A model generated the notes under the pieces. That model was not told the origin of the DNA. It saw only the letters and a program-made list of their open reading frames with translations, and did not search any database. A DNA stretch of 64,000 nucleotides from a virus: the IMG/VR virus record IMGVR_UViG_3300017917_003339, positions 28,495-92,494 of that record; one strand, written 5' to 3'. Numbering within the stretch: the stretch's first letter is position 1; each line of letters starts with the position of its first letter. The translations under genes and the position numbers were made by a program. Shown here piece by piece: positions 11,946 to 57,836 of the stretch.

Positions 11946-11963
11946 AATTCATGAAGCTTTTTC

Positions 11964-12050
11964 ACACCTGACAGGATTCGAACCTGCAATCTGGGGCTAT
12001 CTAAAACGCAAGTGCTGGGTCCCCATGTGATACCCTTTCACTACAAGCAT
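11964..12050 (-). ncRNA. tRNA-like RNA with expanded anticodon loop
   Basis: D arm GTGA..TCAC, stem TGGGG/CCCCA enclosing ~24 nt, T arm GCAGG-TTCGAAT-CCTGT. Confidence 0.5.
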
Positions 12051-12303: not shown

Positions 12304-12304
12304 G

Positions 12305-12376
12305 AGCGACTAACCAGAATCGAACTGGCATCCTCGACTTGGCAAGCCGATGCACTAACCGTTGTGCTATAGTCGC
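12305..12376 (-). tRNA. tRNA-Gly(GCC)
   Basis: Cloverleaf, loop TTGCCAA. Confidence 0.9.
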
Positions 12377-24307: not shown

Positions 24308-24542
24308 TTTGTAATTGTTTATGTTTTACGATGCAAATATACGAAGTGTTTTTGTGTGTACCAAATTTTTAATGTTAACTGATTGTTAACAAAGACAGCG
24401 GCACGTGGGAATGACAAAACCTAAGTTCTAGAAACCGTTCACTCGTAAACGAGCTACACGCGCTTGTCTTTTTTATTAAGTTTAGAGGTAGCTTTACCGA
24501 TAAAGTCAATGGACGATATCAATACATTTTACTAAACTAGTA

Positions 24543-24624
24543 CAAGGAGCAGGACTCGAACCTGCGACCCTTCGGTCTGGGATTTCTCCCTCGCCAACCG
24601 CTCTAACCAACTGAGCTACCCCCG
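24543..24624 (-). ncRNA. tRNA-like RNA with non-canonical anticodon arm
   Basis: Canonical D arm TAGCTCAGTTGGTTAGAGC and T arm; anticodon region replaced by a GGGA-GAAA-TCCC hairpin. Confidence 0.55.
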
Positions 24625-24628
24625 TATA

Positions 24629-25536: not shown

Positions 25537-25613
25537 TGGGGGAAGCTGGACTCGAACCAGCGACCTTTCGCTCTCCTAAGACAGCGAACATCTGCCAACT
25601 GAAATATTCCCCC
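25537..25613 (-). ncRNA. tRNA-like RNA with 10-nt anticodon loop
   Basis: TTCGCT-GTCTTAGGAG-AGCGAA; good acceptor and T arm. Confidence 0.55.
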
Positions 25614-25842
25614 GATTGCCTCGGTTAAAAACCGAGGGCTTGTTCCGTGACGCTACCGCCCCAGAGATTTACGTCTTTGTGTTTGATACCACCGCCAGTA
25701 CAAAGTTTCATTATCACAAAGATAAGAGGAGGAACTTTCCTATTGGCTACTACTCTCAAACACCCTACGATGTCTAATTAAAATTACAATGCAAATATAC
25801 TAAGTGTTTTTCAATCTTGCAAGTTTTTTAAAAGTTTTTTTT

Positions 25843-32030: not shown

Positions 32031-32669
32031 TTATTTTCTCCCTTTTAACCAACCTTCGTTTAAATAAGTTTCAAGGTCTTCTTTTTTAATTTTTTTGTTA
32101 GTACCATCCTTGGTTATCCAACATGTACCATATTGACTGTTTGTTTCACCAGTCCCAGTACCTTTTCTTTTTTCTGATATTAATTGTTTAGTTTCTTCCG
32201 AATGACATTTACCTTCAAAAGTATTATAATTAATTTTACCTAATTTATGTGCTTTTTTTAATGTTTCAGATGATATTTCTGTATGTTTTTTAAAAAACTC
32301 TTCATCAATTTTTAATTTGTCAGAAAACGCTTTTCCACCAGCCTTAATACATTTCTCCATATGTTCTTTATTAGCAAAACCACCTTGACCACCTTCTTTT
32401 AAATTCATACATAAACCATCAGATATCAACTCTTTTGTTATAATTTCAATCTCTCTAAGAACTAATTTTTCTCTTGTTGGTAAAAATTCTAATATTTCTT
32501 TTGTATGGTTTTCAACACCATATTTCCTAATACTATATCTTAATATCTTACCACTTCCCATGTAACCGTCATCTAATTTCGTAGTTGAATGCATTCCAAT
32601 ATACCATCTTCCTGTTACATTACATGTTGTTTTATATATGTAATGTATATTTGCTTTTTTTCTTGCCAT
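32031..32669 (-). CDS. GIY-YIG (Seg-like) homing endonuclease with NUMOD3
   Basis: YIYKTT..WYIGMH..YMGSG; HSEETKQLISE. Confidence 0.9.
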   Translation of the reverse strand: MARKKANIHYIYKTTCNVTGRWYIGMHSTTKLDDGYMGSGKILRYSIRKYGVENHTKEILEFLPTREKLVLREIEIITKELISDGLCMNLKEGGQGGFANKEHMEKCIKAGGKAFSDKLKIDEEFFKKHTEISSETLKKAHKLGKINYNTFEGKCHSEETKQLISEKRKGTGTGETNSQYGTCWITKDGTNKKIKKEDLETYLNEGWLKGRK

Positions 32670-32726: not shown

Positions 32727-32805
32727 TGGTAGCCTCGACGGGGCTCGAACCCGCATTGCACACCTTGAAAGGATGGCTTCCTAGTCCGATTTAGAAGACA
32801 AGGCC
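32727..32805 (-). tRNA. tRNA-Glu(UUC)
   Basis: CATC-CTTTCAA-GGTG, encoded CCA. Confidence 0.85.
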
Positions 32806-32862
32806 ATGTTTATCGTTTCGGTTACCCCCACGCAGTGCACTTACGCAGGGACCTACTCCTTG

Positions 32863-33026
32863 TAGGAATGAGTGGATTCGAACCACTGACCTTCTCCCTT
32901 ATGATGGGAGTCGTTCTGAATGTGTTTTTTCAACCAACTTAATGGTAATTCATTAAGCACACACCCCGATTGTTGTTATTTACCATCTCCTTAAGGAGCC
33001 AATCAGACCGCTGAACGTACATTCCT
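32863..33026 (-). tRNA. tRNA(CAU)-like RNA with ~90-nt insertion in the D loop
   Basis: AGGAATG/CATTCCT, D stem CGTTC/GAACG, CTCCC-ATCATAA-GGGAG, canonical T arm. Confidence 0.65.
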
Positions 33027-33104: not shown

Positions 33105-33165
33105 TAATTTCGTTGCAAAGATACAACTTATTTTTTAATCTCCAAATTTTCAATGAACTTTTTTT
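33105..33165 (-). promoter_or_regulatory. internal promoter cassette, near-identical to 55065-55125
   Basis: GTTGTATCTTTGCAACG within a ~60-nt repeat. Confidence 0.7.
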
Positions 33166-33180
33166 ATTTTTTTTTTCTTG

Positions 33181-33251
33181 TGGAATCAACGGGAGTCGAC
33201 CCCGTGTCTCTGGCTCTTCAGGCCAGCGCTAAACCCCTCAGCTATGACTCC
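33181..33251 (-). tRNA. tRNA-Phe(GAA)
   Basis: CTGGC-CTGAAGA-GCCAG; variant T loop GTCGACT. Confidence 0.8.
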
Positions 33252-53333: not shown

Positions 53334-53378
53334 TACCGATATTTTTAAATAAATATCTGAAAATAATGAATAAGACAG

Positions 53379-53463
53379 CGGAGAGTGTGGGATTCGAACC
53401 CACGGGCCCCTTTCGAGGCCACGGTTTAGCAAACCGCTCCAATAACCACTCTGGCAACTCTCC
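53379..53463 (-). tRNA. tRNA-Ser(GCU)
   Basis: GCGGT-TTGCTAA-ACCGT. Confidence 0.93.
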
Positions 53464-53667
53464 ATAAATAAAATAACAATCCCACCCTTGGGTCGTGACG
53501 GGCTACAAAGGGATTAGTGGAATTCCGTGTGTAAGTCACCACTGTACCAGTCCGTATCTACCTTGAATTTAATCAGTCACTGTTGGGAGGCTACCCCTAT
53601 CAACACACCTAGTTTCTTTTCAGGAATATCTTGAAGGTGAAACAAACCTTGATTGTTATTTTATTTG

Positions 53668-53740
53668 TACCCCCACAGGGATTCGAACCCCGATTATACA
53701 TCTTAGAAGGATGTTGCATTTCCATTTATGCTATGAAGGC
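53668..53740 (-). tRNA. tRNA-Arg(UCU)
   Basis: ACATC-CTTCTAA-GATGT. Confidence 0.85.
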
Positions 53741-53747
53741 ATGTATT

Positions 53748-53824
53748 TGGTGACTCTGGTAGGACTCGAACCTACGACCCACAGATTAGAAATCTGTTGC
53801 TCTATCCAACTGAGCTACAGAGCC
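53748..53824 (-). tRNA. tRNA-Arg(UCU)
   Basis: ACAGA-TTTCTAA-TCTGT. Confidence 0.93.
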
Positions 53825-53834
53825 AATTATTTAG

Positions 53835-53908
53835 TGACCACGGTAGGATTCGAACCTACAACCTCCGCAGTCGTAATGCGGTGCGCTATCCAGTTGCGCC
53901 ACGTGGCC
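53835..53908 (-). tRNA. tRNA-Arg(ACG)
   Basis: CCGCA-TTACGAC-TGCGG. Confidence 0.93.
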
Positions 53909-53916
53909 AATTTTAG

Positions 53917-53986
53917 TACCGCATTCGGGAGTCGAACCCGATTATTCATCTTTATGAGGGATGAACGTTTTCCAATAACCTGCGGC
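53917..53986 (-). tRNA. atypical tRNA(CAU)
   Basis: loop CTCATAA, weak D arm. Confidence 0.55.
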
Positions 53987-54131
53987 TTCTTTCAATCTTT
54001 GCTTTAATCTCAGCAATCTTTTCTGGACTTGGATTTCGGTCTACTGTATAGGTAACACCCATTTTATCCAAGTAATCATAAAGACGCTGCATATCAGCTT
54101 CACTTGTCTTTTCCATTTTTGTTTTATTTTG

Positions 54132-54205
54132 CGGCCTCGACAGGACTCGAACCTGTAACCCTTGAGTTAACAACTCACCGCTCTAACCATTATAGCTACG
54201 AGGCC
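54132..54205 (-). tRNA. tRNA-Asn(GUU)
   Basis: TGAG-TTGTTAA-CTCA. Confidence 0.9.
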
Positions 54206-54215
54206 TTATTATTTG

Positions 54216-54288
54216 AGGGCGGAGTGGGACTCGAACCCACGACCAGTTGATTAACAGTCAACTGCTCTACCGACTGAGCTATCCACCC
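54216..54288 (-). tRNA. tRNA-Asn(GUU)
   Basis: GTTGA-CTGTTAA-TCAAC. Confidence 0.9.
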
Positions 54289-54296
54289 TTTTCTTG

Positions 54297-54368
54297 CTCT
54301 TCGGGGGAATTTTGAAATCCCGACCATCGCCTTAACAGGGCGCCGCTCTGCCTCTGAGCTACCGAAGA
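54297..54368 (-). tRNA. tRNA-Asn(GUU)
   Basis: CGCC-CTGTTAA-GGCG; variant T loop TTCAAAA. Confidence 0.85.
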
Positions 54369-54476
54369 ATTTAATATTTTTACCGAAACACCGAGTACCA
54401 CAATTACGGTGTGCCTCCACGCCATTCCGTGGACCAATGCTGTTTTTACCCGTGGTTACACCATTCGGTAGGGTAG

Positions 54477-54574
54477 TGGATGTACTGGGACTCGAACCCA
54501 GACTAACGGTACAGACTTACCTCTCCATAGAGTAATTCCAATTGATTATGTCAGTCTTATTAGTAATTACACCC
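54477..54574 (-). ncRNA. tRNA-like RNA (acceptor and T arm, replaced core)
   Basis: GGGTGTA/TACATCC, CTGGG-TTCGAGT-CCCAG. Confidence 0.45.
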
Positions 54575-54579
54575 TTTAG

Positions 54580-54653
54580 TGGTCCATACAGGGCTCGAAC
54601 CTGTGACCTTCGCGTTATGAGCGCGCCGCTCTAACCAACTGAGCTAATGGACC
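54580..54653 (-). tRNA. tRNA-Met/Ile2(CAU)
   Basis: CGCG-CTCATAA-CGCG. Confidence 0.9.
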
Positions 54654-54896
54654 CTATTTTAATTTATCGAAAAGATACCTTAAATAATCTTCGTTAATAT
54701 CATCATTGAATTCATCTTCTTCTAAATAGCTTTCTTCTATTTCAACATTTTCGTCTAATCTTTTATCCAGAACATCAAGAGCAATTTTTGTTACTTCTTT
54801 TTCTCTACCTTTTAATTCTGGAGCGTCAATCAAAATAAATAAACCAACCAACGATTCAACAATTTTTATTACGTTCTCACTGTATTCTCTTTTCAT
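54654..54896 (-). CDS. acidic hypothetical protein within tRNA operon 4
   Basis: MKREYSENV... Confidence 0.6.
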   Translation of the reverse strand: MKREYSENVIKIVESLVGLFILIDAPELKGREKEVTKIALDVLDKRLDENVEIEESYLEEDEFNDDINEDYLRYLFDKLK

Positions 54897-54898
54897 AG

Positions 54899-54982
54899 TT
54901 GTGACGATGGGACTCGAACCCATATTGTGCTATAAGCACCCAGCGTATCAGGCTGGTGACTAAACCATTCATCCACGTCACA
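54899..54982 (-). tRNA. tRNA-Ile(GAU) with long variable arm
   Basis: CCAGC-CTGATAC-GCTGG; V arm GTGCT-TAT-AGCAC. Confidence 0.8.
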
Positions 54983-54989
54983 GTGTTTG

Positions 54990-55063
54990 TAGGACCGAGC
55001 GGACTCGAACCGCTAACCTCTTGAGTATCAGTCAAGTGCTCTAACCAGTTGAGCTACGGTCCT
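54990..55063 (-). tRNA. tRNA-Ile(GAU)
   Basis: CTTGA-CTGATAC-TCAAG. Confidence 0.92.
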
Positions 55064-55064
55064 A

Positions 55065-55125
55065 TAATTCGTTGCAAAGATACAACTTATTTTTTAATTT
55101 CCAAATTTTTCAACGAACTTTTTTT
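55065..55125 (-). promoter_or_regulatory. internal promoter cassette, near-identical to 33105-33165
   Basis: GTTGTATCTTTGCAACG. Confidence 0.7.
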
Positions 55126-55126
55126 G

Positions 55127-55213
55127 AAGAGAGGGTGGGACTCGAACCCACACACCTCTAGGGCCTACCGCTTTCAAGGCGGTTGCAGTTAGGCCAACTC
55201 TGCTTACCTCTCC
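55127..55213 (-). tRNA. tRNA-Ser(UGA)
   Basis: CCGC-CTTGAAA-GCGG. Confidence 0.85.
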
Positions 55214-55222
55214 ATTATTTAG

Positions 55223-55293
55223 CACGGCCACTAGGACTCGAACCTAGAACTTTGGTTTTGGAGACCAAGATTATACCATTTCACTATGGCCGT
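55223..55293 (-). tRNA. tRNA-Trp(CCA)
   Basis: TTGGT-CTCCAAA-ACCAA. Confidence 0.88.
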
Positions 55294-55301
55294 ATTTAAT
55301 T

Positions 55302-55395
55302 TGTTATCGAGGGATTCGAACCCTCACACCCTCACAGGGGTTACGGTTTACCTGCCGCAGTCATTACCCAGTTTACTCTTTTGACTCAGATAACA
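55302..55395 (-). ncRNA. degenerate class-II tRNA-like RNA
   Basis: TGTTATC/GATAACA, canonical T arm, irregular anticodon loop. Confidence 0.5.
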
Positions 55396-55402
55396 AATTT
55401 AG

Positions 55403-55475
55403 GGTGAACGAGGAATTTTGAAATCCCGACCTTCTGAATCACAATCAGACGCTCTGCCTCTGAGCTACGCACACC
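55403..55475 (-). tRNA. tRNA-His(GUG)
   Basis: TCTGA-TTGTGAT-TCAGA, G-1/C73. Confidence 0.85.
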
Positions 55476-55479
55476 ATGT

Positions 55480-56127
55480 TTATTTTCTCCCTTTTAACCA
55501 ACCATCATTTAGATAAGTTTCAAGGTCTTCTTTTTTAATCTTTTTATTAGCACCATCCTTGGTTATCCAACAAGTACCATATTGACTATTTGATTCACCA
55601 ACACCAGTACCTTTTCTTATTTCAGATATCAACTGTTTAGTTTCTTCAGAATGTTTTTTCCCATTCCAATCATAATTAACATTCCTATCAATTTTACCTT
55701 CTTCATATGCTTTTTTAATCGATTTAGACAACGTATCACTTTTTTTCTTATTCCACTCTGGGTCTTGTCTTAAAAGTTTTTGTTTTTCATTTGATTTAAT
55801 AGCATTTAATTTTTGTTCTTCACTAGTAAACCCACGACCACCTTCACCGCCAACAATTAAATTCATACATAAGTACTCTTTAATTAATTCTTTATTAACT
55901 ATCTCACGTTCTCGCTTAGCTAATTTTTCTCTAGTTGGTAAATATTCAAGGATTTCTTTTGTGTGGTTTTCTACGCCATACTTTCTAATTGAATATCTCA
56001 ACCTTTTACCACTTCCCATATAACCATCTTCTAGGTTACACGTACTATGCATCCCTACATAATATTTTCCAGTTACATTACATGTTGTTTTATATATGTA
56101 ATGTATTGTTTTTTCTTTTCTTGCCAT
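55480..56127 (-). CDS. GIY-YIG (Seg-like) homing endonuclease, paralog of 32031-32669
   Basis: MARKEKTIHYIYKTTCNVTGKYYVGMH; near-identical C-terminus. Confidence 0.9.
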   Translation of the reverse strand: MARKEKTIHYIYKTTCNVTGKYYVGMHSTCNLEDGYMGSGKRLRYSIRKYGVENHTKEILEYLPTREKLAKREREIVNKELIKEYLCMNLIVGGEGGRGFTSEEQKLNAIKSNEKQKLLRQDPEWNKKKSDTLSKSIKKAYEEGKIDRNVNYDWNGKKHSEETKQLISEIRKGTGVGESNSQYGTCWITKDGANKKIKKEDLETYLNDGWLKGRK

Positions 56128-56180
56128 TGTCGTATATCTTTTTAATATAAATATACGACAAAGTACAAAAAAGTCAAGTG

Positions 56181-56255
56181 GGTGACTGATGGGGTTCGAA
56201 CCCACGGCCTTCTGAACCACAATCAGACGCTCTAACCAGCTGAGCTACAGCCACC
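56181..56255 (-). tRNA. tRNA-His(GUG)
   Basis: TCTGA-TTGTGGT-TCAGA. Confidence 0.93.
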
Positions 56256-56324
56256 ATGTTTAATTTACTTTCACCGCATTTTTGCGGTGATTATCACCGC
56301 TATTCACCGCATGTGTAAATTTTG

Positions 56325-56415
56325 CGGAGGAGGTGAGACTCGAACTCACACGTCCCTTTCGGGTACCCTCGGTTTTCAAGACCGCTGCCGCTAGGCCAAC
56401 TCGGCTTACTCCTCC
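56325..56415 (-). tRNA. tRNA-Ser(UGA)
   Basis: CGGT-CTTGAAA-ACCG, G73. Confidence 0.93.
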
Positions 56416-56596
56416 GTATTTATAATAACAAAAATTTCAATGAACCCACCTTCTTTTTTAAATTTCAGTTCGCCAGTATATCCACTAGCATCTGCCATTT
56501 TTCTGTACTTGTCAACTATGAGGTCAAAATTCTCTGTTAAGTCGACAGCTTTTTCTCTACCTAAACATTTTACTAATTCACCCATAGTCTTAAAAT

Positions 56597-56631
56597 AAAA
56601 AAACCCGACTTAGTTTTAACTTGTCGGGTTT
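56597..56631 (-). terminator. attenuator terminator of tRNA operon 4
   Basis: AAACCCGAC-AAGTTAAAACTAA-GTCGGG-T7. Confidence 0.9.
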
Positions 56632-56653
56632 ATGTTTTATATTGTTTTAAGGT

Positions 56654-56755
56654 TTAGGTCCAAGTCCCTCCACCTTTACAATTAGACATACCCGACTCTG
56701 GGTGACTATTGCGTCTCCAATTTCTCGAAATCATATGTATGTTAATTGTTCTCAT
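56654..56755 (-). CDS. leader peptide 4 (R/I/N/H/M/S/W sensor): MRTINIHMISRNWRRNSHPESGMSNCKGGGTWT
   Basis: C-terminal part of track ORF 56654-56836; antiterminator GTCGGGT at 56690-56696. Confidence 0.88.
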   Translation of the reverse strand: MRTINIHMISRNWRRNSHPESGMSNCKGGGTWT

Positions 56756-56791
56756 TGTTGTTTTATTTTTAATGTTGTTTTTTAAATTCTT

Positions 56792-56828
56792 TGCAAAGAT
56801 ACGAAGACTTTTTATACGAGTCAAGTTT
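56792..56828 (-). promoter_or_regulatory. promoter of tRNA operon 4
   Basis: ACTTGACT...GTATCTTTGCA. Confidence 0.75.
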
Positions 56829-57045
56829 TTTTGCAATTTTTTTTCTATTTTTTTCTTTTTACCGTTGCTCTAGAAACTTGAACTGTTTTTCTACTGTTAG
56901 TTGTACCTTTTCTTGTTTCTATAACTCTAGTGTGCGCTTTTCTTTTATGTGTCGGCATATCGTTTTATATTAAATATGCTTAAAGATAAAAAAGTTTCAA
57001 AAAATGTAAATATTATTTTAATTATATATGACCATTTAAATTTCG

Positions 57046-57354
57046 TTAGCGTTCAATATATTTTTTACCGTTAAAAGAAACTTCAACAAAAGACCATGTT
57101 GGGTTTAATACTTCTTTTAATATTTCATTAACTTTTTCATGAACTTGTGACACACAAAGATTAACCCTTTCATCGGTTGTAACTTCTGGGTTATCATAGT
57201 TTATATTTATTTTAGCAAATGAATATTGACCGATATTTTCATTTAAACTAGTTTCATCAGTATTTTCATTTATCAACCCCTTTGATTCTAAATATCTTTG
57301 TTCAGTCAGCAAATTAGCTTTTTTAATATTTTTAATTTTATCAAATCTTCTCAT
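57046..57354 (-). CDS. putative late protein
   Basis: MRRFDK..LLTEQRYLE; ATATTTATA upstream. Confidence 0.55.
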   Translation of the reverse strand: MRRFDKIKNIKKANLLTEQRYLESKGLINENTDETSLNENIGQYSFAKININYDNPEVTTDERVNLCVSQVHEKVNEILKEVLNPTWSFVEVSFNGKKYIER

Positions 57355-57386
57355 ATCAATAATTTAATTATAAATATCATAAAAAT

Positions 57387-57836
57387 TTAAAAAATTTCTG
57401 CTGTGATATAAACTTCATTTGTAGTTCCAACCAATTCTCTTCGTTTGAGCCAATCGTTTAAGTTATTAAGACCCTTGAATTGTTGGCCCCAGATATAACC
57501 ATAACCCAAAGATTTTGGGTAGTCTTTTAGTTTGTTACCCCAGCCTTGTCCTCTCACTGATTCATCAACAGCTAGAAGTAAACCTTCAACACCTATAAGA
57601 CCAACGTATTTGTCTTGTACGTATTGTGATGGCAACTGATGGTTTCCTAGTATATAAACACCCTTTATATTGTCATCATCATCCAACAGCAAGGCTGATT
57701 GTTTCCAATTAGCATTGGCTAGGTCTCTCATATAATAATCAAAACCACCTCTGGAGATTACGTGTTTAAAAAAAGGGAAACTGAAATCTAAGACTTCTTG
57801 AACTTGGTTTAAATTGATACCTTGTTTAATTTTCAT
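57387..57836 (-). CDS. GNAT acetyltransferase
   Basis: AVDESVRGQGWG. Confidence 0.7.
   Translation of the reverse strand: MKIKQGINLNQVQEVLDFSFPFFKHVISRGGFDYYMRDLANANWKQSALLLDDDDNIKGVYILGNHQLPSQYVQDKYVGLIGVEGLLLAVDESVRGQGWGNKLKDYPKSLGYGYIWGQQFKGLNNLNDWLKRRELVGTTNEVYITAEIF

Follow-up and report, generated by a model that had tools for sequence, protein, structure and literature searches.

Organization of the proposed attenuator 4 locus

The window analysed here, 64,000 nt of DNA from an uncultured large phage, forms the last part of one virus record, which is 92.5 kb long. It contains 46 tRNA genes, which are located on the minus strand without exception and jointly cover all 20 amino acids. 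The largest tRNA block, array 4, is headed by a unit designated attenuator 4, in which a promoter is followed by a short ORF, an intrinsic terminator and the tRNA genes. Read on the minus strand from 56832 to 56597, the unit is represented by an A-tract with a -33 element, a -7 box, an ORF of 33 codons and a hairpin with a T-run; a 59-aa ORF and the tRNA block come next. An earlier sequence-only reading of this DNA had named a start codon, a residue list, pairs of synonymous codons, the complementarity of two arms and a motif shared with another leader, and each of these elements was found on the minus strand. The features of the locus are as follows.

56794-56832, minus strand: promoter, with an A-tract, the -33 element TTGAC (56824-56820) and a -7 box of the Bacteroidota type, TAnnTTTG (56801-56794)
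56654-56755, minus strand: leader ORF of 33 codons plus stop, with the ATG at 56755 and the stop codon at 56656-56654
56702-56752, minus strand: sensor codons 2-18 of the leader ORF, considered below for their residue set and anticodon coverage
56737-56749, minus strand: region 1, the protector arm (codons 3-7), pairing with 56691-56678
56678-56696, minus strand: region 2 (codons 20-26), the 5' half of which (56696-56686) makes the antiterminator with region 3, and the 3' half (56691-56678) the protector helix with region 1
56649-56676, minus strand: small predicted hairpin lying between regions 2 and 3 and covering the last part of the ORF with its stop codon
56623-56635, minus strand: region 3, the terminator 5' arm (56631-56623) with four upstream bases, common to the antiterminator and the terminator
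56597-56609, minus strand: region 4, the terminator 3' arm, then a run of seven T (56603-56597)
56406-56585, minus strand: conserved 59-aa ORF, the first gene past the terminator, overlapping the first tRNA-Ser gene by about 10 nt
53378-56415, minus strand: array 4, the putatively gated tRNA array of 15 genes, the largest tRNA block in the window
55480-56220, minus strand (longest frame, start codon uncertain): GIY-YIG homing endonuclease gene inside array 4
55075-55104, minus strand: internal leaderless promoter-like site directly before tRNA-Ile (55063)

A blastn search with positions 56400-57400 against 50,697 phage records gave no match, and the sole protein-level relative of a large neighbouring gene belongs to an unannotated 595 kb uncultured phage, LR756511.1. 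Directly upstream of the promoter, at 56845-56958 on the minus strand, lies a very basic 37-aa ORF rich in Lys, Arg and Thr, for which no Pfam or PHROG family was found. This ORF is conserved in three relatives of the unit (L156, L162 and L165), and in L165 it continues into the leader without a promoter between them.

The specific promoter pattern has four matches in the window, with none expected, and each of them precedes a leader, that is, a short ORF with a terminator heading a tRNA block. The more general pattern TTG-N20-TAnnTTTG is represented by 22 matches in the window against 2.2 expected. The leader ORF of attenuator 4 begins 39 nt past the -7 box, between the promoter and the first gene presumed to be controlled. 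An A-rich stretch upstream of its ATG remains outside all predicted folds. No Shine-Dalgarno sequence was found ahead of this ATG, which is usual for Bacteroidota.

Genes downstream of the terminator

The genes that the unit would control are the 59-aa ORF and the 15 tRNA genes, and not genes of amino-acid biosynthesis or of aminoacyl-tRNA synthetases, which are the classical targets of such control. The 59-aa ORF shows 62-83% identity across 21 loci and is the first post-terminator gene in 21 viral contigs; no Pfam or PHROG family was found for it, and the protein atlas suggested no function. In the order of transcription, array 4 contains genes for Ser(tga), His, His, Trp, Ser(tga), two Ile, Met(cat), three Asn, Arg(acg), two Arg(tct) and Ser(gct).

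The homing endonuclease gene inside array 4, of the GIY-YIG/NUMOD3 type, matches phrog_314 (E = 2.6e-35), and a second, similar gene is present at 32031-32669 on the minus strand, inside array 2. Homing endonuclease genes within tRNA arrays recall SegB of the tRNA region of phage T4.

The promoter-like site at 55104 may transcribe the distal ten tRNA genes without the attenuator, and thus part of array 4 may not depend on the latter. The site is absent from most relatives of the unit. It belongs to a leaderless promoter cassette (55075-55135, minus strand), 83% identical to another at 33115-33185 on the same strand; the two precede tRNA-Ile (55063) in array 4 and tRNA-Phe (33101) in array 2, respectively. 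Such cassettes may mark tRNA genes inserted along with their own promoter.

Codon composition of the leader ORF

The sequence-only reading had described the leader as a sensor for Arg, Ile, Asn, His, Met, Ser and Trp that covers all seven isotypes of the largest array, and this description was borne out. Among codons 2-19, 16 of 18 encode Ser, His, Trp, Ile, Met, Asn or Arg, which are exactly the isotypes of the tRNA genes downstream, and all seven are present. Residues 2-18 belong to this set with the sole exception of Thr at position 3, and in the sensor core (codons 7-18, positions 56737-56702) all 12 residues are in the set. At the level of anticodons, every one of the nine species of the array has a codon or more among codons 2-18. 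The synonymous pairs that had been listed for the leader (AGA/CGC, ATT/ATA, AAC/AAT, CAT/CAC and TCG/AGT) are all there. Codons 3 (ACA) and 6 (ATA) are not clearly served by array 4; codon 6 falls in region 1, a sequence common to three of the four leaders of the window, and might be served if the tRNA with a CAT anticodon at 54579-54653 were a lysidine-Ile and not a Met tRNA.

The match is specific to the reading frame, since the ATG frame has 16 of 18 codons in the set against 4 and 5 of 18 in the other two frames. In a six-frame scan of the whole 92.5 kb genome, about 95,000 stop-free windows of 12 residues were scored by the number of residues in the set and by isotype coverage, and the leader proved to be the only one with 12 of 12 in the set and all seven isotypes represented. 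Composition alone was rejected as a statistic for leader 4, as the set accounts for 34% of six-frame residues and Ser-rich off-frame stretches score high too.

Predicted RNA structures

Folding of the leader RNA yields three alternative pairings, namely, a protector helix between regions 1 and 2, an antiterminator between regions 2 and 3, and a terminator between regions 3 and 4. The fold of the full leader (z-score of -4.9 against shuffles) is represented by the protector helix (56749-56737 with 56691-56678), the small hairpin and the terminator. The latter (56631-56597) has a 9-bp stem followed by seven T, with a calculated energy of -13.0 kcal/mol, and is situated between the leader ORF and the genes presumed to be controlled; each of the 23 units examined has an equivalent one.

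When the terminator 3' arm is omitted, the best fold pairs 56696-56686 with 56635-56623 and thereby consumes the terminator 5' arm. This is consistent with the claim that GTCGGGT (56696-56690) pairs with ACCCGAC (56629-56623): the two are exact complements, and the second is part of the terminator 5' arm. The antiterminator duplex has a calculated energy of -15.0 kcal/mol, compared with -8.7 +/- 1.8 kcal/mol in dinucleotide shuffles of the 3' part of the leader, of which 3 in 1000 were as good (p = 0.003). Its AUGU/ACAU extension was found only in the unit of the window. In all 23 units, including units of every type, the duplex between a leader and its own terminator is stronger than the mean of the non-cognate pairs.

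The effect of a ribosome on these pairings was modelled with a mask of 27 nt. With the A site at codons 2-16 the antiterminator is retained (P = 0.83), while with the A site at codons 18-27 it is abolished; the positions that permit it match the sensor codons, in the three sister leaders as well as in leader 4. Folds of the growing chain predict that region 2 is held by region 1 until region 3 is complete. At the point where region 3 is complete and region 4 has not yet been made, the untranslated RNA favours the antiterminator by about 4 kcal/mol, so that the basal state must depend on folding kinetics, and thermodynamic modelling cannot settle the state of an untranslated leader. The full-length RNA at equilibrium always favours the terminator, as would be anticipated if the outcome of the switch is set while transcription is still under way. 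The equilibrium probability of the terminator under a masked ribosome was tried as a measure and abandoned in favour of nascent-chain folds: the terminator wins at every position, and the quantity is uninformative because the switch is kinetic.

Relatives of the proposed attenuator 4 unit

A scan for the promoter motif and a search with the 59-aa ORF as bait brought up this unit in many uncultured viral contigs, and a metagenome scan added seven leaders. The sensor is kept in 20 distinct relatives (13 viral-contig and seven further metagenome sequences). The alignment comprises the 13 distinct viral-contig relatives and the sequence of the window, 14 in total; the ATG, the reading frame and the position of the stop codon are conserved in all 13.

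The ATG and the sensor codons are near-invariant despite their location in the loop of the 1:2 helix, where they are not constrained by pairing. All changes in the sensor remain within the set: Met to Ile, His to Arg, and Arg to Ile-Ser by an insertion of 3 nt. Swaps of Ser codons between the two Ser tRNAs of the array, also within the set, were seen in relatives, and the indels in the aligned leaders all keep the frame, with lengths in multiples of 3. Variation is free in the linker (codons 19-21) and the peptide tail, while the sensor and the RNA arms are conserved. The distance from the stop codon to the terminator arm is 20-39 nt in all 27 units measured. The sequence of the small hairpin over the stop codon (56649-56676) is not conserved among relatives.

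Covariation was found in part of the structure. The terminator sequence differs in L166 and L173, where regions 2, 3 and 4 are altered together; changes on both sides were detected at three pairs of the terminator and two pairs of the antiterminator. Within the close family, double changes in the antiterminator are limited to two pairs, and the shuffle control was not significant. The protector helix is paired at 89.6% across the 14 sequences, without covariation.

Two relatives, L170 and L175, retain some codons for Ile and Met in the leader although the 4.2 kb examined contained no tRNA gene for either, so the match between leader and array is inexact at a fine scale. A scan of bacterial genome contigs for the sensor core gave one 20.5 kb contig (L177, CAUYTX010000233.1) with a leader of the attenuator 4 type and a tRNA array. 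The contig had been assigned to a gammaproteobacterial bin; it is probably of phage origin and misplaced, and no guide to the host.

Sister units and units of distant phages

The four leaders of the window contain 17, 13, 9 and 16 of 18 codons in the set of their own tRNA block, and only 0-4 of 18 in the sets of each other's blocks. A segment had been noted as common to leaders 4 and 1, and a search of the window confirms this: the nine bases GGGTATGTC occur only at 56693 and 16813, in both cases inside a leader. The common motif, promoter and layout make a shared origin of these two leaders plausible, as judged from sequence.

Units of the same plan were found in three other phages, which partition their tRNA genes differently. 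In G001, an 86 kb fragment, one block comprises Cys, Val, Leu, Asp, Phe and Ala, and Glu has moved into a block with Pro, Gln, Tyr and Lys; both leaders match the composition of their blocks. G002 (178 kb) contains a Trp/Glu/Val/Ala/Asp/Met/Leu block and a Pro/His/Gln block. The blocks of G003 (597 kb) are Val/Leu/Ile/Arg/Asn/Cys/Thr, Trp/Phe/His/Lys and Ser/Arg. At the head of every block in G001-G003 stand a short ORF, its composition matching that of the block, and a terminator.

The four units of the window and the seven of these phages were compared in an 11 x 11 matrix of leaders and arrays. Every one of the 11 column maxima belongs to a cognate pair, as do 10 of the 11 row maxima, and none of 200,000 permutations of leaders and arrays reached the observed diagonal sum. 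For the antiterminator duplexes of the sister and more distant units, p values against shuffles range from 0 to 0.064. In the three units of G003 (L301-L303), the -33/-7 promoter of Bacteroidota is replaced by another conserved motif that all three have in common, with an A/G-rich box and then an AT-rich box some 10 nt upstream of the ATG. This suggests a different promoter class or a different host.

A number of further elements were recorded in the window outside attenuator 4. No leader ORF accompanies a promoter at 25822 (25537-25822, minus strand); about 170 nt of GC-richer, structured-looking sequence come after it, and then a tRNA-like gene whose anticodon loop is odd (ARAGORN '???', anticodon ct). 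Rfam tRNA calls at 24541-24625 and 11963-12050 were missed by ARAGORN. At 32727-33000 on the minus strand, after an unassigned stretch of about 190 nt behind tRNA-Phe of array 2, there is a tRNA with the anticodon TCA, labelled SeC by ARAGORN; it recurs in relatives L015 and L051 and could be a UGA suppressor. A tRNA-Gly(gcc) gene is located at 12304-12376 on the minus strand, 2.3 kb downstream of array 1 and beyond several ORFs. The GGC codon of leader 1 is read, under standard pairing, only by this tRNA, and thus the transcription unit may extend to 12304-12376.

Proposed mechanism and alternative explanations

Attenuator 4 is likely to be a ribosome-mediated (leader-peptide) transcription attenuator, gauging the decoding speed of codons served by the downstream tRNAs. 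Such a reading of leader 4 had been proposed earlier, and it gains in silico support from several computed features: the four-region anatomy with mutually exclusive pairings; the frame-specific match of codons to the array, down to the level of anticodons; conservation with partial covariation in relatives; and recurrence in other units, including those of distant phages. The phage probably makes the array 4 tRNAs only upon slow reading of the sensor codons by ribosomes, where both translation of the leader and read-through are inferred, in the absence of expression data.

In the proposed sequence of events, transcription would start at the promoter 56832-56794 and a ribosome would begin the 33-codon leader. 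With plentiful tRNAs for Ser, His, Trp, Ile, Met, Asn and Arg, the ribosome would keep up with the polymerase, a coupling that is itself inferred, and would cover region 2 or wait at the stop codon between regions 2 and 3. Regions 2 and 3 would thus be kept apart, the 3:4 terminator would form and transcription would end at 56603-56597. The separation of these regions by a ribosome that has read through to the stop codon is an inference, as is the direction of the response. When any of the nine tRNA species is scarce, the ribosome would lag within codons 2-16 and occupy region 1; region 2 would then be free to pair with region 3, no terminator would form, and the polymerase would read through to the 59-aa ORF and the 15 tRNA genes. 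It is likewise inferred that a lagging ribosome permits the antiterminator, that read-through depends on charged tRNA and that the output tRNAs feed back: newly made tRNAs would let the leader be decoded faster and shut off read-through again, a negative feedback. With 17 codons for nine tRNA species, the leader may integrate minor delays or react when any single species is lost.

The physiological trigger is also a matter of inference, and the same switch would be conceivable with amino-acid starvation, in the form of uncharged tRNA, as its input in place of tRNA amount, which would tie tRNA output to host nutrition. Absent and uncharged tRNAs are alike to a stalled ribosome, amino-acid supply is what classical attenuators report, and the switch anatomy obtained from the folds and the mask scan fits either input. 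Extra tRNA would be no remedy for amino-acid starvation, however. Moreover, the leaders are sorted by the tRNA genes that follow and not by biosynthetic pathway, they track the re-sorted arrays in other phages, and their synonymous codons draw on different isoacceptors of the array. Starvation as the input is therefore considered unlikely.

It is also hard to credit that the polarity is reversed, or that the unit merely checks for translation, so that any translation of the leader would open the 1:2 helix, cause read-through and report active ribosomes. The folding results lend this some weight, since the antiterminator is favoured with a ribosome anywhere in codons 2-16 and region 2 of the untranslated growing chain stays in the protector helix. 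A mere check would nevertheless leave unexplained why codons match the downstream tRNAs in 11 of 11 units, why substitutions in the sensor are restricted to the set and why the distance from the stop codon to the terminator is nearly fixed.

If the terminator were constitutive, or an insulator, behind a small independent gene that encodes a micro-protein or nothing, the array would be driven by other promoters. The internal promoter at 55104 and the lack of expression data leave room for this, but it appears very improbable in view of the match in composition, which is frame-specific and unique in the genome, and of conservation, which extends to the sensor and the RNA arms but not to the peptide tail. 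In addition, both complementarity and covariation connect region 2 with the terminator arm, and most relatives have no other promoter from the leader to the last tRNA.

Least credible of all is an RNA-only switch that binds tRNA directly, like a T-box, without translation: it would share the choice between terminator and antiterminator and the connection to tRNA, and the near-invariance of a sensor lying in the loop of the 1:2 helix could be so explained, but neither a T-box nor any other Rfam family matched at the leader, T-boxes read one specifier codon, and 17 in-frame codons for seven isotypes, a conserved ATG and stop codon and indels of 3 nt indicate decoding by a ribosome.

Comparison with known systems

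The known mechanisms nearest to the attenuator proposed here are the multivalent ilv and thr leaders and the pheST attenuator. It resembles enterobacterial leaders in having a short ORF rich in regulatory codons (translation of leader 4 being inferred), 1:2, 2:3 and 3:4 hairpins, an intrinsic terminator and presumed read-through on stalling. As in the multivalent leaders of ilvGMEDA (Ile/Leu/Val) and thr (Thr/Ile), one leader would sense several amino acids, while the leaders of trp, his, leu and phe are single-residue ones. The differences concern both target and sensor: enterobacterial leaders control biosynthetic enzymes and use runs of one codon, whereas leader 4 would control tRNA genes and lists seven isotypes and nine anticodon species with few repeats. 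The stop codon of leader 4 lies beyond region 2, which would place a terminating ribosome between regions 2 and 3. Finally, leader 4 is phage-borne, has a promoter of the Bacteroidota type and matches no Rfam leader family.

The pheST attenuator of E. coli is a leader peptide that controls phenylalanyl-tRNA synthetase. As proposed for leader 4, it places an attenuator on a component of the decoding apparatus, with feedback via the decoding speed of its own cognate codons; pheST is cellular and concerns one amino acid and a protein gene, whereas in leader 4 the product is tRNA and the sensor spans a block of isotypes. T-box riboswitches likewise convert tRNA status into a choice between terminator and antiterminator ahead of translation-related genes, but they bind one uncharged tRNA via a specifier codon and act without a ribosome. 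A search of the window for a T-box (specifier loop, T-box motif and Rfam model) gave no match. At the Rfam gathering score only tRNAs matched in the window, and a local E-value search returned only chance-level sRNA matches.

The nearest published example of a conditional tRNA array is the trn operon of Anabaena sp. PCC 7120, a long extra array that is silent and switched on when translation is impaired, where a protein repressor, TrcR, is in control (PMC8421152, PMC10272220). Homing endonuclease genes are found beside such arrays, as also in array 4; the array of Anabaena is cellular and plasmid-borne, while array 4 is viral. The terms leader, attenuator and stall are not used in the present sense in either paper on the trn operon (PMC8421152, PMC10272220).

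Full-text literature searches found no publication on control of tRNA genes, arrays, operons or phage tRNAs by leader peptides or attenuation. In a search for huge phages, tRNA and attenuation, none of the matches listed was relevant by its title or abstract. To our knowledge, the control of phage tRNA genes remains largely obscure. On the reading proposed here, attenuator 4 would be a switch of a familiar type whose target and sensing logic are both new.

Significance for phage biology

Phage tRNA genes have been explained by codon compensation and, more recently, by replacement of host tRNAs destroyed by defence systems (PMC10264068, PMC11555353). Recent work shows such replacement to be possible, and losses of this kind offer a plausible trigger for the attenuator. 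Tentatively, and with less confidence than the attenuator itself, a wider role can be considered, in which the four leaders divide all 20 amino acids among them and jointly monitor the tRNA pool. They might then detect host tRNAs lost in infection, through shut-off or tRNA-cleaving defence nucleases, and switch on the matching block only, as an inducible counter-defence sensor assembled from the parts of a classical attenuator.

If confirmed, attenuator 4 would extend leader-peptide attenuation from metabolic operons to the decoding machinery and would represent a natural multi-input sensor of decoding speed, with nine tRNA species monitored in 17 codons. It would also explain the sorting of tRNA genes into isotype blocks in these phages. 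A rule testable on sequences follows, namely, that the content of an array is predictable from the composition of its leader. For the phage, attenuator 4 suggests a supply of tRNA matched to demand, in which the ribosome reports a shortage and the phage answers with that block alone.
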